Shown here: one piece after another, positions 3,588 to 31,800 of the stretch | Numbering within the stretch: the stretch's first letter is position 1 | Layout of the letters: every line of letters starts with the position of its first letter | Assembly: GCF_000017845.1 (NCBI RefSeq) | Contig: NC_010546.1 | Coordinates: 2,100,001 to 2,132,000 of the forward strand | Source of the DNA: Crocosphaera subtropica ATCC 51142 | GTDB taxonomy: Bacteria; Cyanobacteriota; Cyanobacteriia; Cyanobacteriales; Microcystaceae | Length of the DNA: 32,000 nucleotides | Direction: 5' to 3' | Made by a program: the position numbers and the translations under genes | Notes under the pieces: generated by a model | The model's database searches: none | What the model saw: the letters and a program-made list of their open reading frames with translations, nothing else | Told to the model about the DNA's origin: nothing

Positions 3588-4292
3588 CTACAATAATCCA
3601 TGGATCAAGTAAAAGGCGAGAACCGCACTACCGAGAGGAACTGTTAAATTATCAATTCCTAACTTAGAAAAGGCTTCTAATCCCATAGCAGCGATAGAAA
3701 CGATTAAAGAAACTATGGCTACCGTTAAGATAGGTTCATCTACCCATAAAAGAATAGCACTGGTCACCAAAAAACTAACTCCCATCATCGTTAATGAGCC
3801 TTCCCAACTTTTTTTAACCCCTAATACTTGATAGGAATGCTTTCCCAACTTTTGCCCAATAATGGCCGCCATTCCATCTCCCCAAGCCATGACTAAAATG
3901 CCGATGGCTAAGTATTGAGGTTGTCCTATGGCCCAAAACCACTGGGTTAACACCCCAATGCTGAGGGCATAAAAAAAAGTCCCTAAGCTTTTGCGTCCTA
4001 CACTATTAATACTCGGTAGAATGGGTAAAAAATAGGAAATTAGGGCGATAATACTCGCAATAAAGGAAGCCCCTATTAGCACCCAAGGGGGCAATTCTAA
4101 CCACCAGGCAATTAACACCACGTTCCCTGAGCCAATATGGACAATTTTTCGGGTAAATTCCGCATCTGTCCCCCTTAAACGGTTGAGTCCCTCAGCTAAG
4201 GCGATAATAGCCCCAAGATAGAGGATAACCAGACTGATAGGATATCCCAGAGATAGCAAAGCGTTAATCAATGGACGTGACTCAGATAGCAA
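3588..4292 (-). CDS. Phytol kinase (VTE5-like; CTP-dependent polyprenol kinase family), TTG start in the ORF track
   Basis: Polytopic membrane protein. TRKIVHIGSGNVVLIAWW, LVMAWGDGMAAIIGQKLGKH, KSWEGSLTM and GIDNLTVPLGSA match my memory of the Synechocystis slr1652 / plant VTE5 family. Confidence 0.75.
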   Translation of the reverse strand: MLSESRPLINALLSLGYPISLVILYLGAIIALAEGLNRLRGTDAEFTRKIVHIGSGNVVLIAWWLELPPWVLIGASFIASIIALISYFLPILPSINSVGRKSLGTFFYALSIGVLTQWFWAIGQPQYLAIGILVMAWGDGMAAIIGQKLGKHSYQVLGVKKSWEGSLTMMGVSFLVTSAILLWVDEPILTVAIVSLIVSIAAMGLEAFSKLGIDNLTVPLGSAVLAFYLIHGLL

Positions 4293-5430: not shown

Positions 5431-7035
5431 TTATAATGTCCAGACAATGGGTAAATTAGGCATAATTGTTTCATTATTATTGTCAATAACAGTTTCGGAC
5501 TCAAAATCTAAAACTTTTTCAACTTGTTGATAAATTTCCTCTGCTTCTTCTAAGGAATTGCCAATACAAGTTAACCCTAATTTTCCAAATTCTGATAAAG
5601 CACCCATTAAATGAAATACGGTTCCTGTTTTATTACTGGTATCAAAATGTAATCGATATTTAGCAACAATATCCATTAAATCATCGGGCAGTAACCCACA
5701 ATATTGTTGTTTTTGTAAGTTGTCAGAAGCAATATAATATTTAGGGTGATTGTTTTGGGTATAAAACAACCCAGTTGTTTGATCGTAACTTCCATTAGTT
5801 AATAATTTTAAGGTCATAAAAGGATGGGTTGTTCCTCCTTTTCTTAAATTAATTTCAATAGCTTGAATGTCCCATTTTTCTCCTTGCTCAGAAAAATTAC
5901 GAACAGCTAAAAAGTCCACTCCATACCGTTCTATTGCTCCCCTTTGTGCCAATGCTTGGCCAATTTTTAAGCCTAAATCTTGTAAGATATGACGATAAGC
6001 TTCATCAGCCGGAAAACGACAACCTAAATAAATTTGTCCGTCAGGTCCCCCTAAAATTTGATCATGGGTAGAGACAACGGACACTTCTCCATCAGGGGTA
6101 ATATAACCTTGAACGCTGGGAGAACGCTTTTCTTTTCCTTCTATAAAGGCTTCAACAATAGCCCCTAATTCGGGAATTCGACTGGAAAAATTTTCCCAAG
6201 TTTCGTCTTTTGCTTGGAAACTTAATTGTTTTAAACTATTTAAAATAGCTGTTTTAATTTGGGATTCATTAGATAGATGAGAGACATTATTTTTCAGATT
6301 ATCTAAATCTAAGACTGCGTTCCCTTCTCCTGAAAATCCTTCATTGAGTTTAACAACAATTCGGTTTAGATGTGGGTTTCTTTGCCAAAGTTTATAAAGT
6401 TCTAGGACTAAATCATCAACATTATTTACTAAACGACTGCCATCAGGGTGAGGAATTAAACATTCTGAAAAAATTTCTCGACTGCCACTTTTTGACCCCC
6501 AATAAATGAGTTGTGGAGAAGCTGCAAACAGGGGAACATCTAATTTTAAAGAGAGTTCTTGCTCTAAATGAGTGGCATTAAAACAAACCATATAAGATTT
6601 ATTCGGACGTAAAGCCCTGCGAATTTTTTCTACTAAGCGAGGACGTTCTAAAATTTTTTGGGTTAAGGGCTTAAATGAGTTATCATAAGTCGTAAGTAAA
6701 AGTAAGCGATCGCGAGCATGGGAAAAAGGAATTCCTGGTAATAATTGTAGATAATATTCAATAATAATTGGGGATAAAGGTTGTCCAGTGACATAAATTA
6801 ATCGTGTTTTCGGATTTCGTAAACGAATTAAGGAGAATAAAAGACGTTCTTCGTAATGAAGAAATCCAGCAACTTTTTGACCGACTCGCTGATCAATACT
6901 AAAAGAAGGAACGACTAAAATATCATAACCATCCTGCTCAAATAGGTCTTTTCCTTGCCAATATTGTCGTAATTTATCTTGAAGTTTATTAAAATTTTCA
7001 ACTTGAAAATCATCGATTTTTTTGACACTGCTCAT
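5431..7035 (-). CDS. ATP-grasp-like carboxylate-amine ligase family protein (PGM1-type peptide-ligase-related); function unknown
   Basis: Long clean 534-aa ORF. The segment VVKLNEGFSGEGNAV ... VEAFIEG ... FLAV...WDIQAIEINLRKGGTTHP resembles an ATP-grasp nucleotide-binding core. The family call is from memory only. Confidence 0.55.
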   Translation of the reverse strand: MSSVKKIDDFQVENFNKLQDKLRQYWQGKDLFEQDGYDILVVPSFSIDQRVGQKVAGFLHYEERLLFSLIRLRNPKTRLIYVTGQPLSPIIIEYYLQLLPGIPFSHARDRLLLLTTYDNSFKPLTQKILERPRLVEKIRRALRPNKSYMVCFNATHLEQELSLKLDVPLFAASPQLIYWGSKSGSREIFSECLIPHPDGSRLVNNVDDLVLELYKLWQRNPHLNRIVVKLNEGFSGEGNAVLDLDNLKNNVSHLSNESQIKTAILNSLKQLSFQAKDETWENFSSRIPELGAIVEAFIEGKEKRSPSVQGYITPDGEVSVVSTHDQILGGPDGQIYLGCRFPADEAYRHILQDLGLKIGQALAQRGAIERYGVDFLAVRNFSEQGEKWDIQAIEINLRKGGTTHPFMTLKLLTNGSYDQTTGLFYTQNNHPKYYIASDNLQKQQYCGLLPDDLMDIVAKYRLHFDTSNKTGTVFHLMGALSEFGKLGLTCIGNSLEEAEEIYQQVEKVLDFESETVIDNNNETIMPNLPIVWTL

Positions 7036-10883: not shown

Positions 10884-11474
10884 AAAAAAGTATGTTATAC
10901 CAATTCTCAAAAGTTACTAGAGACTTAATAAATATTCCTTTTCCTTTATCTCCCCTGTTCCCTCTGCTTACCTCAACGAATAATCTTTTATCTGAGAGGG
11001 ACGATTTTCAATGAAGTTCGGTGGTTGGGAATACTCTCTTTTATGAAGGTTTTTATCGTTGAGTTAATTATCTTGTCTACTATGTAGGGGAAGCAACTCA
11101 GTATTTTGTGACTTATGATACGATAATAAGGAGAAGAATAAATGGACTTCCCTAGAATTGAAAGGATTGAAGGCTGAGAGGAGTGAGTACATAGTTTTTC
11201 CTAACCCAAGTTGCCTTATCGTTTATTATGGCATCGATTAAGAGAATGCCAAAAGCGTCGACAACGGTTTTCAGGATTTTTGTTAAGGATAGATCCGTCA
11301 GAGTTTCCAACCGACTGTGTCCTTAGTAGGCGTATCGTATAAACGTTAAAGGTTGACTGATATCTCAATTACTTTAAGTTAAATTGTCTTAGTTATGACA
11401 AGAGACGGGACTGCTCTGAATTAACTAAGCAAATGGTTCACTTTACACTTCTTTTAGTTTTTGGAGTTAATCTA

Positions 11475-11771
11475 ATGAAACGCTCTATCATTAGCTTACT
11501 TGCTTTGTCTACCATCGGTTTATTAACGTTACCTGCTTTAGCCGATGATGCCACTATCCAACGATCAGACCAAGTCTCAACCCAAGAAGGCAACAGAAAC
11601 ACTGCTATCCAAGATAGTTCTCAAAGCAATATTAACCGAGGTCGTAATCGCCGAGGGGAAGACACAGGAACAGTACAAGAAAGTTACCAAGATACGTTAC
11701 AACAAGGCAGCGATAACGTCAGTGTTCAAGAAAGCGATCAAAGAAATGTTCGTGATACTCGTAGACGTTAA
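11475..11771 (+). CDS. Small secreted Q/S/N/R-rich protein of unknown function (98 aa from the SD-preceded ATG; the track ORF starts at 11433)
   Basis: GGAG lies 8 nt upstream of the ATG at 11475. The signal peptide is MKRSIISLLALSTIGLLTLPALA|DD. The mature part has no hydrophobic core and carries three motif copies starting at G39, G61 and G78. Confidence 0.65.
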   Translation: MKRSIISLLALSTIGLLTLPALADDATIQRSDQVSTQEGNRNTAIQDSSQSNINRGRNRRGEDTGTVQESYQDTLQQGSDNVSVQESDQRNVRDTRRR

Positions 11772-12092
11772 TTCTCTTCTAAAATTTGACTGAATTTTCT
11801 TCAGTTAGATGTTAAACCTGGTTTATGTTTGTAGGGAGGATTTTACAGGTATTTTGGGGGTAGGGTAACCGATAAAAAATGTTGCTTACCCAGAAAACAA
11901 GCAAACAACATTTCTGTCTTTACAGTGTTTCTTTTCGTTTTTTGGAGTTGCCTCCTAGCCCCAGTGTATCATTTATTTCATGGCATCGTCTATGAGACTA
12001 ATCCAGCAAAGGACACAACCCTGAGTTCTCAAGACAATCGGCCAAGAAATGTTAGCCATCCTAGACCTGAATTCTCCATAAACAATTAGTTC

Positions 12093-12140
12093 TAGGGGTT
12101 AGACTTGGGGGTTAACACCGCACGAAGGGTCTAACCTCTG
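12093..12140 (+). promoter_or_regulatory. Leader hairpin ahead of the 12171 gene
   Basis: Core stem GGTTAGAC(12097-12104)/GTCTAACC(12129-12136) extends to ~12 bp with G:U pairs, has a 24-nt loop, and ends 30 nt before the ATG. Confidence 0.25.
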
Positions 12141-12170
12141 GATTCTGTTGACTGATGTGAGGTAATAAAC

Positions 12171-12527
12171 ATGAAATTAATGAAGCTTGTCTTTAGTATG
12201 GCTACGCTATTAATTTTTCTGCCGATCAATGTTCAAGGGGAACCCACTGATGTTCAAGCAGGAAATGTCAGGATTCTTCGAGAACCCAATGGCAACATTG
12301 AGATTAATACAGGAGAAACACAACTGAGTGTTCCTGGAAACTCAAGAACAAGGAACAGTGATGATTATTCCCTAGAGGATAGGGAGATGAATTCCTCAAC
12401 TTCTAGACAAACAATTCGTAATACTCGCTGTGATAATAGCCGTGTTTCCTCCCATCAAACCAGTCGGGTTCGGGGATCAAATCGAACAGTAAGACAAACC
12501 AGTGTTTTAACGAATACTTGTCCGTAA
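12171..12527 (+). CDS. Small secreted S/T/R/N-rich protein of unknown function
   Basis: GAGGT Shine-Dalgarno and signal peptide MKLMKLVFSMATLLIFLPINVQG|E. The C-terminal half is low complexity with two Cys (RCDNS...TNTCP). Confidence 0.6.
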   Translation: MKLMKLVFSMATLLIFLPINVQGEPTDVQAGNVRILREPNGNIEINTGETQLSVPGNSRTRNSDDYSLEDREMNSSTSRQTIRNTRCDNSRVSSHQTSRVRGSNRTVRQTSVLTNTCP

Positions 12528-12545
12528 GACTTCTAGGAGGTTACG

Positions 12546-12917
12546 ATGAAATTAACTTATTTGAGTGCTGGTTTACTATCAGTTACTAGCTTATTCTGTT
12601 TGACTTTGGTTAACCCTGAGTTGGCCTCTGCTCAATGTGTACAGTCCCATACAGGGGTTCAGGTTCACATGGGACAAACCCCGGCAGAACAAACCCATAA
12701 TACTCGATTTGAAAACCAAGGTGATTGTACAGGTAATGCCAGTTCAACAACTTCAACCCAGGTTCAAGTTGGAGGAGACAATGTGCGTCAACATCAAGAA
12801 TCTCGCCATCAAACCCGTGGGAGTAGTCGAAATCCTTCTGGGGTGAGTGGACCGACGGTAAGTGTTGATACTGTTGCTCCTGTTGACGTTCAAACCCCTG
12901 AAAATTTTCCTTACTAA
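12546..12917 (+). CDS. Small secreted Q/S/T-rich protein of unknown function
   Basis: Strong AGGAGG SD 6 nt upstream and signal peptide ...NPELASA|QC. It shares GGDNVRQHQES and HQTRGSSRN-type strings with the two preceding small proteins. Confidence 0.65.
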   Translation: MKLTYLSAGLLSVTSLFCLTLVNPELASAQCVQSHTGVQVHMGQTPAEQTHNTRFENQGDCTGNASSTTSTQVQVGGDNVRQHQESRHQTRGSSRNPSGVSGPTVSVDTVAPVDVQTPENFPY

Positions 12918-12975
12918 CTTTAGTTAGTCTGCTAATGTGTGTTGTTAATACACATTAGCTAGTTGTTGTTGAGGA

Positions 12976-13548
12976 ATGATCATGAACAACAAAAAAAATT
13001 TTATACTCTTTTCAGTTTTTGGAGCTTTATTGGTAATTATAATTACTCTTATTAATCAAGCAACTGAAGGATTTTTGAGTCAATTCCCAGTCATTAATGA
13101 CAACAATAAAGCCATTGAGGTTGACAAAAAAGAGACTGACCTTGAGATGAGAGAGGAACCAACTAGACCGATGAATCAGCATTCAATGGATAATATAGCT
13201 ACTCTAATCTCTCAATCTTATCAAGAACAACAAACTCAAATTAGTCTCAGTCAATATGAGCTAAATCGTCCCTATACGTTAACCATTAAAACAAGTAATC
13301 AAGGAACCCAATTACAAGGAGAAATTCGGCTGAATGGTCGATCTATTCAATCATTGAATCAACATCAAACTGTGATTAATTTATCCCCTTATTTGCAGGT
13401 AGGAAAACAGATGATTGAAATCTCAGGGAACTATACACCGATCAATGACTCAATTATCATTGAACTCAAAAGTCAAAATAGCCAAACCAGTCAAACCACC
13501 AGTGGAACTGGACAACTGCAACAACGGTTAATTATTAATGTAGAATAA
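12976..13548 (+). CDS. N-terminally membrane-anchored protein of unknown function
   Basis: GAGGA SD and a single N-terminal hydrophobic helix (FILFSVFGALLVIIITLI). The C-terminal ~90 aa have an alternating beta-strand-like pattern (YTLTIKTS..GEIRLNGRSI..INLSPYLQVGKQMIEISG..IIIELK). Confidence 0.6.
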   Translation: MIMNNKKNFILFSVFGALLVIIITLINQATEGFLSQFPVINDNNKAIEVDKKETDLEMREEPTRPMNQHSMDNIATLISQSYQEQQTQISLSQYELNRPYTLTIKTSNQGTQLQGEIRLNGRSIQSLNQHQTVINLSPYLQVGKQMIEISGNYTPINDSIIIELKSQNSQTSQTTSGTGQLQQRLIINVE

Positions 13549-13568
13549 GGAAAATTTTTGGTTGATCC

Positions 13569-14669
13569 ATGAATCAAAATCTTAATTGGGTTGGTTTTAC
13601 TTCAATGACGGTGGTGAGTTTAACCGCTTTTACTGCTAATGCTCAAATTCCCCAAACTGCCATTCAAGAAGTTCTGATTCAAGGAAGTTCTAATGAAGTG
13701 AATCAACAATTAACACAGACATTTTTCTTGAATTTTGTTTACTTGCCTCAGATAGAACCGTCAGATATTCCTGAGTTAAACATTCAAGGTTCTTTTTTGG
13801 ATAATACTAATAATGAAGTTATACAACAAATTGGAAAAACGGTTTTAGATTTTCCTTTAGTCGAAAGTCGTTTAACGAGTTTTTCCATTGAAGATTTTGT
13901 CAATCATGATGGGACGCTGAATGGAAACCAATACAGTACCCAACAAGCTTTAATCGGTAATAGTCAAGAAACGAATAATCAAAATAATACAATTAGCCAA
14001 ATTAGTTATCAAACCTTAACTAATTTTTTCTGGTTAGATGATTCTAGTGGGATGACAGGGGAAGAAAACTTTAATCAATTTTTAGAGAAACTTCTTACCC
14101 ATCAAAAGCTAGATTCTCTACAATTTAGTTTACAGGATGCTATTGTTTATGGGGATAATAATATTATTAGCCAAACCGTTGAGCAAACCTTTCATCATTT
14201 TATTTTGACAAATCAAACTTTAGATTTTTCGTCTGAGTTAAATGATCTTGATCCTTCTTTGGGATTAGATCCTATTCAGTTTCTGATTCAAGAGACATTT
14301 ACCATTGATCCGAGTAATAATATCAGTGCAAACAATTTAGTCACTCAACGTATTAATCAATTGATTGGCGGAACTTCTTTTTTTAATACTAATTCACTCC
14401 ACTCAGTTTTACCAAGTTCTCAGCTTTCAGAGGTTGAAACAAACTCTTTAGTTGATTTTGATATCGATGCCTTTATTGAAGCGATTTTAAATGATATAAC
14501 CATTGCAACAACCCAAATTAGTCGTCAAACATCGGAGATATTGGGAGATGAGAACGAGGTATTTCAGAGTAATACCCAGGTTCTTGTCACCACTGTTCCT
14601 GAGCCAAATAGCCTAAAAATGTTACTATCAATGGCAATCATGGGAGCGATCGCTCTACTTCGTAAATGA
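13569..14669 (+). CDS. PEP-CTERM-anchored secreted repeat protein of unknown function
   Basis: Signal peptide (..LTAFTANA|Q). The C-terminal VPEP + hydrophobic helix (LKMLLSMAIMGAIALL) + RK is the PEP-CTERM exosortase sorting signal. Six copies of x-x-x-N-x-[VI]-x-Q-x-x-x-[QK] occur, four of them spaced exactly 58 aa apart. Confidence 0.8.
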   Translation: MNQNLNWVGFTSMTVVSLTAFTANAQIPQTAIQEVLIQGSSNEVNQQLTQTFFLNFVYLPQIEPSDIPELNIQGSFLDNTNNEVIQQIGKTVLDFPLVESRLTSFSIEDFVNHDGTLNGNQYSTQQALIGNSQETNNQNNTISQISYQTLTNFFWLDDSSGMTGEENFNQFLEKLLTHQKLDSLQFSLQDAIVYGDNNIISQTVEQTFHHFILTNQTLDFSSELNDLDPSLGLDPIQFLIQETFTIDPSNNISANNLVTQRINQLIGGTSFFNTNSLHSVLPSSQLSEVETNSLVDFDIDAFIEAILNDITIATTQISRQTSEILGDENEVFQSNTQVLVTTVPEPNSLKMLLSMAIMGAIALLRK

Positions 14670-19620: not shown

Positions 19621-21540
19621 TTAACGATTACTCTGAGAACCGTCAGTGTCAAGAATCGGCACAAATTCATTTTGCGGAGCTAATGAAGGGGGAATTTCTG
19701 GTTTTGTCGGTTGCAGAAGCTTATTCCAAACCGTGATTTGCGCTTGAGCAGAGCTATAAGCAGCACTATCCCCAGGAACCATCTTAGCTAATTTTACTGC
19801 TTCAGGTAATAGGGAACGATTGGCCAATTTTTGAGCCATAGACAGTAGTTGAAAACTCCAACGATCAAGGGCTTGTTTGGCTTCAGAACTCATATCCGTC
19901 GACGAGGGAATTTTACGAACCACCGCAATCGCAGAAATTAAGGCTTGAGGGGTTTGGGGTTGAGCCAGCAAATAAGCCTCTTGTAAATTGCGATCCGCAC
20001 GAATTTCCCGTTGCCATTGGTTAATATTGTTTTGCGCTTCGGAATAGAGTATCCGACCTGCACCAATTTGTTGAGCGGTGTTAATGGCTGCTTGATAGTC
20101 CTTTCCGGCTGCTAAGGCCATAGCCTGATTTAAAATCGGTTGATCCTCTTGACGTTGTATACTCCCGCGCCAATCATTAATCTCACTTTGAGCTTCATTC
20201 GATAAAGCCCGGCCTGGACCAATCATTTGGGCTTGGGCGATGGCTTGTCTTAAATCAGAGATATTGCCACTGGCTGCCATACTGCGGGCTTGATCCAAGA
20301 TCGGTTGATCTTCACGCAGTTGAATGGTATTCGTCCATTCATTAATTTCTTGTCTAGCTTCTTGGTAACGGGGGTTACGAGCAGGAACTTGTTCAGCGGC
20401 CGCAATGGCTGCATTCAAATCGTCAATACTACCCCCTGAGGCTAAATCACGAGCTTCTTGCAGATGGATAACATCTTCTATTTCTAATTGGAAACGACTG
20501 ATCAAATCTTGGGCTTCTTGGTAAAGGGGACGATTTTCGTCAATTTCTTCTAAGGCCAAAATAGCAATTTCTAGGTTTTCTACTGTCCCTGTTTGAGCAT
20601 CTAAACCAGCACTGGCCATGGTTCTCCAGTCGGCTATTTCTTCCGATAATGCTAGACTATCCGGCAATCGGTTAACCACATCGGACAAAGTGGACCAACG
20701 GCGATCATCAATGAGGCCATCGATATAGTCAGTAATTTTTTCTTTGGCATCTTCGATGAGGTTTTGGGCTTCTCGATAAGCGTAACTCTCAGGGGTGATT
20801 TTTTCAGCATCGGCGATCGCTGTTAACCAATTGTCAATTCCCCCTCGACGCAAAACAGCATAAGCATTATCCAAGCGACTGCTTTCTTCTTGAGCTAATT
20901 GGATTCTATTGACCGTATCATCGTATCTTGTCGTTGCCCAGTATTTATTGGGAATACTCAAGAGTTTAACCGCTTCTCTAAATGCTAGATTCCAGTTAGA
21001 CTCTCGTAATTCTTCTTCAACCTGAGCAAAAATTTCTTCCCCTTCTCTCCAAATATTGCGCCACTTTTCGATTCGTTCTTCTACCACCTCATACACTTGA
21101 ACATTATTAGGGACACGACGGGCTGTTTTGATGGCTTCTTCTAAGTTACCCTTTTGGAATTCTTCTTCAGCAATATCTAGGATGGCTACCGCCCAGTCTT
21201 CAACGTTACGGTTAATTTCGTGCCGTAGAGGATGATCATCGGGCAGTGCTTCAACTAATTTAATCGCTCGTAGGAAGCTATCGACAGTCCCTTGTTCTGC
21301 TTCTATTTGGGCGCAATAAATCCGCATCGACGCTGAAGCAACTGGCCAAAAAATTCGCACACATTGAGGGGATTTGGGCAATCTGAGCAACATCGATGTT
21401 GCCGTAAAACCGATAGTTCCAGAGACGATAATTAGTGCGATCGCCCAGAGTTGCCAAGGAATTTGACTGGTTCGCAGGGCAATACGCTCTAATAAAGCTT
21501 GATGATTCCCATGAGTCCCTTGATTTGTCGATTGTTCCAT
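19621..21540 (-). CDS. N-terminally membrane-anchored protein built from ~45-50-aa helical repeats; function unknown
   Basis: One TM helix (LWAIALIIVSGTIGFTATSMLL), then repeated units ending Y-x-EAQ-x-x-I-x-x-W: YQEARQEINEW, SNEAQSEINDW, YSEAQNNINQW, YSSAQAQITVW, YREAQNLIED, YQEAQDLISRF. Confidence 0.7.
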   Translation of the reverse strand: MEQSTNQGTHGNHQALLERIALRTSQIPWQLWAIALIIVSGTIGFTATSMLLRLPKSPQCVRIFWPVASASMRIYCAQIEAEQGTVDSFLRAIKLVEALPDDHPLRHEINRNVEDWAVAILDIAEEEFQKGNLEEAIKTARRVPNNVQVYEVVEERIEKWRNIWREGEEIFAQVEEELRESNWNLAFREAVKLLSIPNKYWATTRYDDTVNRIQLAQEESSRLDNAYAVLRRGGIDNWLTAIADAEKITPESYAYREAQNLIEDAKEKITDYIDGLIDDRRWSTLSDVVNRLPDSLALSEEIADWRTMASAGLDAQTGTVENLEIAILALEEIDENRPLYQEAQDLISRFQLEIEDVIHLQEARDLASGGSIDDLNAAIAAAEQVPARNPRYQEARQEINEWTNTIQLREDQPILDQARSMAASGNISDLRQAIAQAQMIGPGRALSNEAQSEINDWRGSIQRQEDQPILNQAMALAAGKDYQAAINTAQQIGAGRILYSEAQNNINQWQREIRADRNLQEAYLLAQPQTPQALISAIAVVRKIPSSTDMSSEAKQALDRWSFQLLSMAQKLANRSLLPEAVKLAKMVPGDSAAYSSAQAQITVWNKLLQPTKPEIPPSLAPQNEFVPILDTDGSQSNR

Positions 21541-23599: not shown

Positions 23600-23830
23600 G
23601 ATAAAGTTGTATTTAATTTGTCTTCAGTGTGTGACATCCTCCCCAACTAACTGCAAGCAGTATAGTTGGGGCTTCCCACCTCACGATGAGATATTTCTGC
23701 CCACAGAGGTAAACCCCTACGCCAGTTATCTAGGCTCATCACCCCCGACACCTCGACTTGACAGACAGTTTCCTTTTCCCTGAGTCCCAGGGTAGTAGAT
23801 TCTATTCCTCGATTGCAGACCTCCTGTGCG
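23600..23830 (-). ncRNA. Candidate omega-RNA (reRNA) scaffold overlapping the tnpB 3' end
   Basis: The position follows established TnpB biology. On the minus strand, CCCCAACTATACTGC-TT-GCAGTTAGTTGGGG forms a 14-bp stem with one bulge and spans the stop codon. Further local pairings include CCCTG/CAGGG and ACCTC/GAGGT. The boundaries are guessed. Confidence 0.3.
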
Positions 23831-25100
23831 CTTGCTACGTCCCGATCAACAAAATAGTCAACCCCGTAACCGCATTCATAACAGGCGTGAAACCTATCAG
23901 ATAAGGTCTTTTTGGCTTCTGCACGACAATTAGGACAAGTTTGGCTAGTTCCCCGATGATCAACCAAACCAAAATACTTGCCTCTAATCTTGCAAACGTA
24001 CTGTAGAATATCCCTAAATTGCCCAAAACCTGCATCAAGGGTATGTTTACCCAAAAAGCCCTTAGCCATTGTGCGGAAATCTATATCTTCCATAAAGATA
24101 GAGTCTCCCATATCACAGACTTTATGGGCTAATTTGAACTGGTAATCTTTTCGTTTGAAAGCAATATGATTGTGTTGCTTTTCTATTTTCTTTCTAGCTT
24201 TCTCGTAGTTCTTAGAACGTTTGGTTTTTCTTGCTAACCGACGTTGTAGCACTTTCAGCCTACGGTGTTCGGTTTTGAAGAATTTACGTCTTTTTTCTAC
24301 ATAATTATCCGAGGTTGCTAAGTAGCTAGAAAGTCCGACATCAAGGCCAAGAAAATGCCCAAATGGTGTTTCTATTTTAGGTAAACTTATGTCGGATTGA
24401 ATGCTAATTACGGCAAACCAACCCTTAGCTTTTTTGATAATTCTTACCTGTTTAATTATAAACCCATTGGGTATGGGACGATGAAGATTGATTTCAATTT
24501 TCCCCAATTTAGGTAACTTTATTTGCCACCCTGTCAACGGGTTACTTCTAAATTGAGGAAATAATAAAGACTTCATTTGTCCATATTTCTTGAACCGAGG
24601 AAAGCCAAACCCCCGATTACGAAAAAAGTCCCAAGCGTCGTGAAGTCTCCTAACATTTGTTTGTAAGACTTGACTTGGAACTTTAGCTAACTCAGGATAT
24701 ACTTTTTTAGCTTTTGGTAATTGGTTTTGTTGCTGATGATAACTTGGGAAAGGATAATCAGCAGACATGATGTACTCTGACTCCAAACTACATCTATCTA
24801 CTAGGCACTTACGACTAGAAATCCAATCCTTCAACTCACGCAAAGCATAGTTATATGAACGGCGACAAATTTCTAGCCATTCAGATAACATTGCTTCTTG
24901 TTTGCTATCAGGATAAATCCTGTATGTGTAGTTCAGTGTTAGAGTCATAGCCATAGTTTAGCACAAGGTTGCTAAAATGGTAACACAAATTATCTAAGCA
25001 AGGTTGTGCTTTGCACGTTAATATTTTGGTCAAAATTCATCCCCATCTAAAATGTGAGTATTTTGTTAGAATTTATAGATGGGGACTTCTTTTGACATTC
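23620..25100 (-). mobile_element. TnpB-only IS200/IS605-type element (approximate ends)
   Basis: The tnpB ORF is flanked by a 3' hairpin at 23641..23671 and by a subterminal palindrome TCCCCATCTA(25040-25049)/TAGATGGGGA(25076-25085) upstream of the start. Ends cannot be fixed without a second copy. Confidence 0.55.
23647..24954 (-). CDS. tnpB: TnpB (IS200/IS605-family OrfB; RuvC-type RNA-guided endonuclease family)
   Basis: N-terminal TLNYTYRIYPDSKQEAML..., RuvC-I LGLDVGL, RuvC-II IFMEDIDF, zinc ribbon CPNC-x14-CYEC, RuvC-III VDRDVASA. There is no transposase partner. Confidence 0.9.
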   Translation of the reverse strand: MAMTLTLNYTYRIYPDSKQEAMLSEWLEICRRSYNYALRELKDWISSRKCLVDRCSLESEYIMSADYPFPSYHQQQNQLPKAKKVYPELAKVPSQVLQTNVRRLHDAWDFFRNRGFGFPRFKKYGQMKSLLFPQFRSNPLTGWQIKLPKLGKIEINLHRPIPNGFIIKQVRIIKKAKGWFAVISIQSDISLPKIETPFGHFLGLDVGLSSYLATSDNYVEKRRKFFKTEHRRLKVLQRRLARKTKRSKNYEKARKKIEKQHNHIAFKRKDYQFKLAHKVCDMGDSIFMEDIDFRTMAKGFLGKHTLDAGFGQFRDILQYVCKIRGKYFGLVDHRGTSQTCPNCRAEAKKTLSDRFHACYECGYGVDYFVDRDVASAQEVCNRGIESTTLGLREKETVCQVEVSGVMSLDNWRRGLPLWAEISHREVGSPNYTACS

Positions 25101-28884: not shown

Positions 28885-31800
28885 TTATAGAACCAATTCA
28901 ATCACATTAGCTACGATGTTAATATTTAGTGCATCAGGCAAGATACCTGGTAACTCAATGCCTTGATTATTACCTAAATCAAGAAAAGTGTTGCCATTTT
29001 GTTCAATTAACTGGAGGGACTGAGAATCGATATTTTGGAGACGAATTTTATCCCCTGACTCGAAGTCTTCAATGCGATCGCGTCCTTCATTGGCACTAAA
29101 GTTAAAGATATCGCCACCACTACCCCCATTGAGAACGTCGTTACCAGCACCACCCGTTAGCACGTCGTTACCTGTACCACCACTTAAAGTATCGTTACCT
29201 GTGCTACCGGTCAAAATATCATTGCCAGCGTTACCATCAATCAAGTCATCTCCGCTAGTCCCTTCAATGATGTCGTCTCCTTTGGTTCCTGCGATCGTTG
29301 TTACCCCTGTGGCCAAATCATAAGAAGATTTGGGAGTTTCTGAAATCTGAGAGTTGTCAGATATGGAGTTAGCAACAGGGGTAGTTTCTTCATAAACTTG
29401 AATATTAGAGAAAATACTTTCTGCTGTTGGGTTAGAGACATCATGATCATTAGTGAAGGTAAGATAATTCATCTGTCCCGTATAGAACTGTCCTACCTCA
29501 ATACGGTAATGTTGCCACTGTCCTGTTGATTTTTCATAATTATCAAATGTTTGATTCCCCCAATTACTTTGGGTGCCATACAATTGGAAGGTCAAATTAC
29601 TACTAATGCTATTATCATTATCAAAACCAATGCCATGAATTTCACCAGGTTGGGAACTATAGAAATCAAACTCTAGGACGGTATTAGCAGTAACTTCATA
29701 AGGCATAGCAATTTTTTTCCAGCCATTACCTGTAATTCTTAAACTGTTCCCGTCGTCTTCAATCGTTGTGGTTGCGTTGATATCTTGACTACTATCGTAG
29801 GATTCAATAACATAATCCTTGAAGGATAAAGTATTGGAAGAGATAGGTTGATTGACATTCACTGAAACTGTTCCTTTGCCTAAACCACCTTTGGTATCAC
29901 TGATGATGTAATCAAAGGTCGAAATCCCTGAAAAATTAGTATCGGGAGTAAAAATAACATCTCCATTACTATCTAATTGAATAGTACCATTAACAGGATT
30001 ATTAACATCGGTTAAACTAATGGAATCACCATCAGGATCACTATCATTGGTAAGTAAAGTAGTTGCTGAAATTGTAACTGGGGTGTTGATATTTGTTGTT
30101 ACATTGTCGTCAGCAGCCACAGGATTATTGTTCAAATCTAGAGGTGTATTCTCATAAACCTGAAGATTAGAAAAAATACTTTCTGCTGTTGGGTTAGAAA
30201 CATCATGATCATTAGTGAAGGTAAGATAATTCATCTGTCCCGTATAGAACTGTCCTACCTCAATACGGTAATGTTGCCACTGTCCTGTTGATTTTTCATA
30301 ATTATCAAATGTTTGATTCCCCCAATTACTTTGGGTGCCATACAATTGGAAGGTCAAATTACTACTAATGCTATTATCATTATCAAAGCCAATGCCTTGA
30401 ATTTCTCCTTGTTGGGAACTGAAGAAATCAAACTCTAAAATGGTGTCAGTTGTAACTTGGTAAGGCATAGCAATTTTTTTCCAGCCATTACCTGTAATTC
30501 TTAAACTGTTCCCGTCGTCTTCAATCGTTGTGGTTGCGTTGATATCTTGACTACTATCGTAGGATTCAATAACATAATCCTTGAAGGATAAAGTGCCTGT
30601 AGGAGAAGGATTATCTACGGCATTAACTGTTAGGTTAACTGTAGCTGTATCTGTCTGTCCGTTTAAATCAGCAACAGTATAGACAAAGCTATCACTTCCA
30701 CTAAAATTGGTATCGGGTGTGTAAGTTAGAGTCCCATCTCCATTGTCCACAATTTTCCCATGATCAGGTTGACTAATATTGCTAACAAAAATTAAATCGC
30801 CATCAGGATCACTATCATTAGCTAGAACATCAATAACGACCGATTGGTTTTCATTGACTTGTGCTGTATCGTTAACCGCAACAGGCGAAGAATTAGAATC
30901 GCCGACAGATGTAGATAAGTTACCAATAAAAACATTATCAATGGCTTGAAATTCACCTAGAGATTGATTAACACCCCATGTAGAAAATCTTACGGCAATA
31001 AATTCATATCCTTTTTCCCCAAAATCAATATTATTCCAACTAAATGTTGTCCAGTCAAAACTATTGTTCCCAATATTACCACTATCCAGCAGTAAGCTTG
31101 CTTCTACAGGAATTGTATCCATAGTAGATGCAATCTTGTCGTCCCATACACTCATAGAAAATGGACCATTAATACCATAAACCTGTAATCTTAAGGTGTT
31201 TGAACCGAGATTAGTTGCATCGAAACTAACAGTTTGCAAACCACGAGTTACACCTTGGTCATTAATAGACTGAACAAGTCTCCCTACACCAGTTTCTTTG
31301 ACGGCATAAGCCCAGCCATTGATAACATCTCGGCCCCACATACCATGATCTTTGTTTTGATACCAACCTTGATTAAACCAGTTGACTGTTACATAGGTCT
31401 GTTTAAAATTTGGATCATCGTTACCAAAATCACTAAATTTAACAACATTTGCATAAGGGCTGTAGTCAACCTCTATTTGTTGAGTATTGGTTACCGTATT
31501 ACCTTGTATATCTGTTACCTTAAGAGTGGCATAGTAAGTGCCTGGTTTATCGTAGCTGTGAGTAGTATAGCGACCAAAATCGTCAATAATTCCATCATTA
31601 TCAAAATCCCAGGCAAAGGAGGCAATAGTATTATCCCCAGCAGTATTAGGATCGTTTTTAGAATCAGTCCATTCAGGAATATAGTCAGGATCTAAAGATG
31701 CACTAGCATCGAAACTTATAGCAAGCCCTCCCTTGGGAGAGTTAGTAAATTCAGCAATTGGAGTTGTATCGGTACTAGGAATTTCAAAGATAGTATTTCC

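Follow-up and report, generated by a model that had tools for sequence, protein, structure and literature searches.

In the curli system, a Sec-exported major subunit (CsgA) and a cell-bound partner (CsgB) are built from one strand-turn-strand repeat rich in Q, N, S and G, and a compact gene cluster adds CsgC, CsgE, CsgF and the channel CsgG; curli occur in Proteobacteria and Bacteroidetes. The Fap system of Pseudomonas (FapA-F) likewise encodes major and minor repeat subunits together with accessory proteins in one operon. In cyanobacteria, EbfG1-4/PteB of Synechococcus elongatus PCC 7942 are small secreted proteins of tandem genes and have been proposed as amyloid-prone components of the surface or matrix (PMC9981879); by analogy, they come nearest among cyanobacterial systems to the locus described here. 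We analyzed a 32,000-nucleotide stretch of the chromosome of Crocosphaera subtropica (formerly Cyanothece sp.) ATCC 51142 (NC_010546.1, positions 2,100,001 to 2,132,000; hereafter the window), in which five consecutive genes, A to E, form a cassette. Its organisation is, by comparison, most like that of functional-amyloid systems, without homology to them. Two of its proteins, A and E, carry a curli-like hairpin repeat, which together with the cassette context suggests an undescribed cell-surface fibre or matrix system.

Exact look-up identified A to E as cce_2070 to cce_2074, annotated as "hypothetical" or "unknown" throughout. All five genes lie on the forward strand: A (11475-11771, 98 amino acids), B (12171-12527, 118 amino acids), C (12546-12917, 123 amino acids), D (12976-13548, 190 amino acids) and E (13569-14669, 366 amino acids). 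An alternative start of A exists at 11433; orthologues favour 11475. The intergenic gaps from A to E measure 399, 18, 58 and 20 nucleotides (nt), and the Shine-Dalgarno sequences AGGAGG and GAGGA are seen in the block. Every protein has an export signal at its N-terminus, either a signal peptide or a hydrophobic helix. A preliminary description of the window had thus been right to report five same-strand open reading frames (ORFs) with these gaps and ribosome-binding sites, each starting with a signal peptide or an N-terminal anchor.

The same description could assign none of the five ORFs to a known family. We scanned Pfam and NCBIfam with A-E and their orthologues and obtained no family above threshold, only sub-threshold noise, and profile searches of PDB sequences, one with each alignment from A to E, revealed no relative for any of the five families. 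A-E are five protein families outside the libraries searched (Pfam, NCBIfam and PDB chain sequences). Matches to characterised families had been named as a possible refutation; the check was run, returned none and left the reading standing. A full-text literature search on the locus tags found no paper that discusses the cce_2070-2074 genes, and in the searchable literature we found no account of curli-like systems in cyanobacteria or of the cassette genes.

The repeat common to proteins A and E

Protein A has an AXA-type Sec signal peptide (residues 1-23, cleaved ALA/DD) and a mature part of 75 residues. It is very hydrophilic, with a grand average of hydropathy (GRAVY) of -1.75, 15% Arg and 12% Asp, and Q, R, D, S, N and T dominate its composition. 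We found in it two copies of a 23-residue motif, Q-x3-Q-x5-G-x2-N-x3-Q-x3-Q, at residues 29-50 (nt 11559-11624, forward strand) and 68-89 (nt 11676-11741, forward strand), with an Arg-rich segment after each. In an alignment of 54 sequences, Q29, Q33, G39, N42, Q68, G78 and N81 are invariant and Q50, Q72 and Q89 nearly so. The conservation follows a period of 2, Q-x-S-x-Q on either side of a G-x-x-N turn, and this pattern is a beta-strand signature. The small proteins had initially been read as disordered polypeptides rich in Q, S, T, N and R that lack a hydrophobic core. For A, the hydrophilic character was borne out, but the protein contains a strictly conserved repeat, twice.

Protein E combines an N-terminal signal peptide with six strand-turn-strand repeats of the A motif, at residues 29-50, about 69-90, 121-148, 185-206, 237-264 and 316-337. 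Proteins of the E family contain the 23-residue motif in exact form three to four times, plus degenerate copies. E is very acidic (isoelectric point about 4, 41 D+E versus 6 K+R), and its relatives are few: a word-indexed search of 5.8 billion proteins found only six, with 41-57% identity. In an AlphaFold model made from seven sequences, each of the six repeats is folded into a strand-turn-strand hairpin with a local predicted local distance difference test (pLDDT) score of about 65-83, and the chain ends in a C-terminal helix. Given the strand boundaries of this model, the conserved Q, S and N residues would lie on one face of each hairpin.

We compared A and E directly. Among the 496 ORFs of all fetched loci, the repeat motif is confined to A and E proteins, and it appeared in 0 of 1000 shuffles of each A or E protein. 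With hhalign, a small A alignment matched a small E alignment collinearly and weakly (E = 0.006). An exhaustive HMMER search of 1.84 billion proteins with the 54-sequence A profile matched a 403-residue protein, P0276, at E = 1.6e-10 in six stretches. P0276 is a member of the E family: it is 36% identical to cce_2074 (E = 1e-57) and has a PEP-CTERM tail. Because the A profile matches an E-family protein at this level, we conclude from sequence comparison that A and E are built from one homologous repeat. This shared repeat had escaped the preliminary description.

The A family is large. A word-indexed search with the A profile returned 84 clusters of about 100-165 amino acids, and all named ones are cyanobacterial (Crocosphaera, Chroococcidiopsis, Laspinema and UBA11049). 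The exhaustive search returned 289 clusters at 50% identity (E <= 0.001), three-repeat forms included. Four A-family clusters bear the name "major curlin subunit", given automatically by the Joint Genome Institute (JGI). Some members have a pair of cysteines, which flanks the G-x-x-N turn of repeat 2 in two of the fetched loci (L016, 8974-9321, reverse strand; L006, 3-161) and brackets repeat 2 in the A copies of Rivularia (L010, 2580-4582). Such pairs fit a strand-turn-strand unit that can be locked by a disulfide.

The likeness to curli lies in the plan of the repeat and in the pairing of subunits: a Sec-exported protein A and a putatively cell-bound partner E would draw on one Q/N/S/G strand-turn-strand repeat, as CsgA and CsgB do. 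A shares the Q-x-G-x-x-N turn, and the first half of its repeat, S-x5-Q-x-G-x-x-N, coincides with the curli repeat. So does the minimal curli expression X6-Q-X-G-X2-N-X10 used by Dueholm et al. 2012 (PMC3521004). We found Q-x-G-x-x-N in both A repeats of most orthologues; it is a low-information motif, and there are two repeats only, with basic linkers of 17-20 residues. The differences are equally clear. A has only two repeats with Arg-rich linkers and is far more charged than a curli subunit; its second strand reads N-x3-Q-x3-Q where curli have N-x-A-x3-Q; and the candidate nucleator E is a PEP-CTERM-type protein. Profiles of Curlin_rpt (PF07012), CsgC, CsgE, CsgF and CsgG gave no match at E <= 1-10 to the window proteins and 55 A-family members. 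Aligned by hhalign with CsgA and CsgB (sequences entered by hand), A matched over the turn only (E = 0.19 and 0.35, probability < 1%). The A profile matched no PDB chain, those of curli and Fap included.

Partner proteins and the tail of E

B is a secreted, basic and extremely hydrophilic protein (isoelectric point about 9) with a conserved, beta-like N-terminal segment, VQ.GNV.I..NG.I.V.TG, two invariant cysteines near its C-terminus and an Arg-rich tail. C is the best-conserved small secreted protein of the cassette. Its mature N-terminus is QCVQ, cysteines C31 and C61 are invariant, and its C-terminal segment TV.V...V.V..P.NFPY is conserved. A view of B and C as simple disordered low-complexity proteins could not be upheld, each having two invariant cysteines. 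A locus search with the C alignment gave three loci, one of them a spurious match in Lachnospiraceae. In the C orthologue of Rivularia (L010, 5453-5851), a canonical lipobox, LAGC, stands in place of the ASA/QC of other C proteins; C may be lipid-anchored in that lineage only. We considered C as a lipoprotein in general and rejected this, since the lipobox occurs only in Rivularia and the two cysteines are invariant as a pair.

D starts with a membrane helix (residues 7-32) and continues through a disordered linker. In other lineages, D has a cleavable signal peptide and not an anchor. An AlphaFold model based on 39 sequences folds residues about 80-190 (nt 13213-13545) into a nine-strand immunoglobulin (Ig)-like beta-sandwich with pLDDT > 90. 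The earlier expectation of one membrane-anchored ORF with a beta-rich C-terminal domain is thereby confirmed for D, by its helix and, in the model, by its sandwich. Foldseek with the D model found weak, generic Ig-like folds only (MmpS5, EbpB pilin, FnIII and PapD), none at E <= 0.001. Chaperone-usher pili need a PapD-like chaperone of two domains and an outer-membrane usher. D has one beta-sandwich only, with weak PapD matches (probability about 0.4, E > 0.05), and no usher was found in the window. An Ig-like D may be likened to CsgC, and B and C, at about 100 residues, to CsgE and CsgF, all within a compact gene cluster. Neither the cassette nor the rest of the window gave a match to CsgG, CsgE or CsgF (PF03783, PF10627 and PF10614).

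Proteins of the PEP-CTERM class occur in association with exopolysaccharide. E has features of this class (Haft 2006, PMC1569441; for cyanoexosortase B, PMC12188702), namely a signal peptide followed, at the C-terminus, by VPEP, a hydrophobic helix and a basic tail. The tail, VPEP-helix-RK, spans residues 342-366 (nt 14592-14666). PF07589, a model of 24 positions, covers these residues from end to end at 16.3 bits, against a cut-off of 20.7. The NCBIfam scan of E gave no PEP-CTERM domain match, the E orthologues of two fetched loci (L008 and L005) did not match the PEP-CTERM model, and the Myxosarcina orthologue has no such tail. UniRef labels E a PEP-CTERM domain protein. The VPEP-TM-RK sorting signal ascribed to E in the preliminary description can thus be seen as a motif, but it scores below the cut-off of PF07589 and the Myxosarcina orthologue does without it. 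E differs from PEP-CTERM/exosortase systems in this sub-cut-off score, in that the tail lies outside the core of the cassette, and in the absence of exosortase or exopolysaccharide genes nearby. The 32-kb window encodes no exosortase, glycosyltransferase or secretin; our window scans agree here with what had been stated before.

The cassette also departs from the other systems. It has neither the FapF barrel nor the FapD protease of Fap and shows no sequence similarity to that system. The EbfG proteins have double-glycine leaders and leave the cell through an ABC exporter with a C39 peptidase, whereas A-E have Sec signal peptides, another repeat and other partners (PMC9981879). We rejected the idea that the small genes encode precursors of bacteriocins or of ribosomally synthesized and post-translationally modified peptides (RiPPs), since the leaders are of the Sec type and there are no enzymes or exporter.

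Conservation, mobility and expression of the cassette

We classified the ORFs of the fetched loci with local hidden Markov models built from our own alignments. The order A(n)-B-C-D(-E) was found in the window and in 11 further loci (L004, L005, L006, L008, L009, L010, L012, L014, L016, L017 and L020). The hosts of A(n)-B-C-D are Crocosphaera, Rippkaea, Myxosarcina, Rivularia and metagenome-assembled genomes (MAGs), and the 39 homologues found with the D profile are all cyanobacterial where named. C. chwakensis CCY0110 has three A genes followed by B, C, D and E, and Myxosarcina sp. GI1 has two A genes followed by the same four. Rivularia sp. PCC 7116 has five A-like genes, B, C and D and no E. 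On the 50.9-kb plasmid pP880101 of Rippkaea orientalis PCC 8801, three identical A genes, B, C, D and E lie across the origin of the record; the C protein of this plasmid is 68% identical to that of the window. Contigs that encode relatives of E have the same gene order, with 97-97-97-118-123-187-368 amino acids in Crocosphaera sp. UHCC 0190 and one metagenome scaffold. In the cassette of one more distant MAG, D is inverted. The proposed check of block conservation in related genomes thus found the block conserved across cyanobacterial genera.

The core of the cassette is A(n)-B-C-D, always with A first, and E is an accessory gene restricted to the Crocosphaera-like and Myxosarcina clade. A PEP-CTERM protein can therefore no longer head the description of this module: E is absent from Rivularia, from L014 and L017 and from the type-2 cassettes described below. 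The flanking genes differ at nearly every locus. L008, on the chromosome of C. chwakensis, and the Rippkaea plasmid are the exception and have the same flanks; in both, a caspase (Peptidase_C14)-DUF8082 protein, a sigma-70 factor and a DUF1822 protein come after the cassette (L018, 2889-6889, on the plasmid; L008, 7841-12438, in C. chwakensis). A protein kinase-DUF8082 protein follows the cassette at L014 (4355-5593), so DUF8082 proteins recur beside it. Because the flanks vary and one copy is plasmid-borne, we conclude that the cassette moves as a unit: it is conserved and horizontally mobile.

A is usually present in two or three tandem copies (range 2-5), and C. subtropica, with its single A, is unusual. 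Within a genome, tandem A copies share 93-100% DNA identity and their spacers are 100% identical. Between genomes, A proteins mostly share 44-70% identity, with 91% for C. chwakensis against the Rippkaea plasmid. High identity within genomes and low identity between them point to concerted evolution or recent amplification, such as a structural subunit selected for dosage would be expected to show.

Published data show that the genes are expressed. In a cell proteome, cce_2070 was detected with 58% coverage by 10 peptides and 129 observations (Stöckel et al. 2011, supplementary table 3, PMC3043056). The coverage was 26% for cce_2072 and 28% for cce_2073; cce_2071 and cce_2074 are not among the proteins listed in that table (PMC3043056). 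Transcript profiles come from the light-dark microarray of Stöckel 2008, reprinted in PMC4431719, with samples in the order D1, D5, D9, L1, L5, L9, run through twice (methods in PMC2695482). The profiles of cce_2070, cce_2071 and cce_2072 are almost identical (PMC4431719). For cce_2070, the log2 values are 0.14, 0.85, 1.65, -3.3, -2.8, -2.6, -0.8, 0.4, 2.2, -3.2, -2.8 and -3.0 (PMC4431719). In these N2-fixing cultures, the A, B and C transcripts rose through the night to D9 and dropped ~30-fold at L1 (dawn), while the D transcript (cce_2073) oscillated less. The near-identity of the profiles shows that A is regulated together with B and C, the 400-bp gap notwithstanding. The preliminary description had set the first gene apart on account of this gap. 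The gap is real, but A belongs functionally with the other genes, given the transcript oscillation it has in common with B and C and its constant place at the head of the cassette. A search for transcription or peptide evidence had also been suggested; we found transcript data for four of the five genes (none for cce_2074) and peptides for three. That the ORFs are genuine genes is further borne out by their annotation as cce_2070-2074 and their conservation in other genomes.

A stem-loop with a perfect 13-bp stem occupies the spacer between C and D (12931-12959, forward strand). Strong hairpins of differing sequence occur in the same spacer at L004, L008, L009 and L010. The stem-loop is probably an intra-operon attenuator or RNA-stability element that parts the strongly oscillating A, B and C from D and E. 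It fits an attenuator giving high levels of A, B and C and low levels of D and E. A promoter scan did no better than on shuffles, and an Rfam scan of the cassette region found no RNA family.

The A profile also matched cce_1572, an A paralogue in the same genome. Around its orthologues in Crocosphaera MAGs, we found a second type of cassette with A', B', C' and D' and two ORFs of about 95 amino acids (L012, 3578-5792; L020, 6001-8468). At least one of the two short ORFs carries a single E-like repeat (mini-E). In C. subtropica, cce_1572-1576 is probably a paralogous cassette, in which cce_1573-1576 would be B', C', D' and mini-E according to the gene order of the MAGs. This cassette is strongly transcribed: in continuous light, the mean array signal of cce_1572 is 136,341, at the level of psbH and petG, and those of cce_1573 to cce_1576 range from 18,766 to 85,807 (PMC4431719). 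The corresponding means are 2,469 for cce_2070, 1,605 for cce_2072 and 5,804 for cce_2073 (PMC4431719). cce_1572 is not listed among the light-dark cyclic genes. None of cce_1572-1576 appears in the 2011 cell proteome, in which cce_1571, cce_1577 and cce_1578 are listed (PMC3043056). Their absence fits loss to the medium or an insoluble state and is only suggestive. A functional link to pilMNOQ, which adjoins cce_1572, was considered and rejected, the type-2 cassette of L020 having other neighbours.

The genes next to A-E in the window have housekeeping roles and are unrelated to the cassette: MgtC/DUF4010 lies upstream, hydantoinase/oxoprolinase downstream. On the reverse strand, about 9 kb further downstream, 23647-24954 encodes an IS605-family OrfB/TnpB-type protein (OrfB_IS605, HTH_OrfB_IS605 and Cas12f1-like TNB domains). 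Other regions of the same strand encode a large putative adhesin with bacterial Ig/cadherin-like domains and RTX calcium-binding repeats, an exported surface protein unrelated to the cassette (28885-31341); a 534-amino-acid ATP-grasp protein with an IQCH-like ATP-grasp and a PGM1 C-terminal domain (5431-7035); and two ORFs of 639 (19621-21540) and 234 (3588-4292) amino acids that have no Pfam match at E <= 1e-5.

Readings of the cassette

We tentatively favour, by analogy and at somewhat less than even confidence, an exported and templated surface assembly that would be analogous to curli without being homologous to them. A would be the abundant secreted subunit, with two strand-turn-strand units whose conserved Q, S and N residues face one side. 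E would be a larger, acidic paralogue of six units, held at the surface by its PEP-CTERM-like tail and serving as both anchor and template (nucleator). A would stack by beta-sheet extension on the hairpin array of E or, in type-2 cassettes, on mini-E. D could act as an Ig-like holdase or chaperone, whether tethered to the periplasm or released into it, and B and C could be small disulfide-bonded adaptors or caps. With their Arg-rich tails, A and B would possibly also bind acidic E or anionic exopolysaccharide. We infer the polymerisation, the surface location, the roles of B, C and D and the route through the outer membrane. The more specific proposal, an independent, plasmid-transmissible and functional-amyloid-like fibre system of cyanobacteria in which A is templated on E or mini-E, aided by D, B and C and without a pore of the CsgG/FapF type, strikes us as rather unlikely in its entirety. 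On this proposal, A would be a two-hairpin Q/N-ladder subunit, and the presumed cce_1572-1576 cassette would supply the Crocosphaera sheath or exopolymer matrix with a major protein component, so that aggregation and particle formation would be governed by it.

Several observations weigh against templated assembly. A is extremely hydrophilic and charged, unlike typical amyloid subunits, and its 58% coverage after ordinary trypsin digestion of a cell proteome speaks against a fibre that resists proteases. As regards functional amyloid in general, the evidence is indirect and mixed: the repeats are predicted as hairpins, A was well recovered with trypsin, and the highly transcribed cce_1572 is absent from the same proteome. 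Many cassettes lack E, so a nucleator of the E type is not universal. Overall, E was modelled by AlphaFold with low confidence (mean pLDDT 49), and Foldseek gave no significant match to it; FapC came on top with a probability of 0.06, which we do not use as evidence. Homology to curlin was undetectable in the Pfam, PDB-profile and hhalign comparisons, and neither the cassette nor the window encodes an outer-membrane channel, be it CsgG, FapF, a secretin or an usher analogue. The earlier proposal of an undescribed exported surface or matrix module nevertheless stands as a candidate, as none of the refutation tests named for it refuted it; its fibre or matrix function is still inferential.

The main rival holds that A, B and C are soluble hydrophilic exported proteins, hydrophilin- or lectin-like, that do not polymerise and whose Arg-rich segments bind anionic or sulfated exopolysaccharide, lipopolysaccharide or peptidoglycan. 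Their task would be to condition the envelope, for instance to withstand desiccation or salt, with no defined fibre, and D and E would be cell-bound docking proteins. This is doubtful in our view. Points in its favour are the extreme hydrophilicity and Arg-rich tails of A and B, the ready detection of A in standard trypsin proteomics, the exopolysaccharide association of PEP-CTERM proteins, the lack of an encoded outer-membrane pore in the cassette or window, and hosts that include benthic and desiccation- or salt-tolerant genera such as Myxosarcina, Rivularia, Chroococcidiopsis and Laspinema. However, an invariant Q/G/N pattern of period 2 across at least 54 divergent sequences points to a defined fold rather than a disordered binder; E, the larger, surface-anchored paralogue, employs this repeat again; and a cassette of four to five genes is strictly kept, its Ig-like partner included. 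The steep transcript cycle raises another explanation, that of a night-phase module for periplasmic or outer-membrane maintenance. It would remodel the envelope in the dark N2-fixing phase, for instance as an oxygen-diffusion barrier or in preparation for division, with its proteins staying in the periplasm or the inner leaflet region and D as a membrane-tethered scaffold. The rise of A, B and C to D9 and their about 30-fold fall at L1 in N2-fixing cultures, the membrane anchor of D in C. subtropica, the presence of the proteins in a cell-associated proteome and the lack of an encoded export pore are in its favour. We nonetheless judge it improbable, since the cassette also occurs in cyanobacteria of other lifestyles and on a plasmid, the paralogue cce_1572 is strong in continuous light and not listed as cyclic, D has a cleavable signal peptide in other lineages, and E ends in a tail of a surface-sorting type.

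Descent of A and E from CsgA and CsgB, in a true but highly diverged curli (Csg) system, would account for the QxGxxN turn, the S-x5-Q spacing that matches the curli repeat, and a component count like csgBAC plus EF; the JGI name "major curlin subunit" points the same way. We give this very little credence, because no Csg family of Pfam matches, the hhalign values (E = 0.19/0.35, with Csg sequences entered by hand) are poor and no PDB chain was hit, the second half of the repeat is in another register, and there is no CsgG in the cassette or window. It is just as hard to believe that A is a secreted antagonistic or signalling peptide, bacteriocin-like and multi-copy, with B-E as immunity or processing factors. 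Small, precursor-like genes in tandem identical copies and a mobile, plasmid-borne cassette would suit such a role, but the signal peptides are ordinary Sec ones, unlike double-glycine or RiPP leaders, genes for a modification enzyme, a protease or an ABC exporter are absent from the cassette, and the repeat recurs in E, an anchored protein of 366 residues.

The A family comprises about 290 clusters even as all five families lie outside Pfam, NCBIfam and the PDB, and the transcript of one cassette paralogue ranks with the most abundant of this marine nitrogen-fixer, a model strain long studied in the laboratory. Aggregation, sheaths and exopolymer particles matter for carbon export and biofilms, and hardly any proteins are known to take part in them. 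If templated assembly is true, a surface protein scaffold would open a molecular way into how cyanobacteria aggregate and form sheaths and exopolymer particles. The cassette would then be an independent example of the solution found in curli, a major subunit and an anchored template from one repeat.

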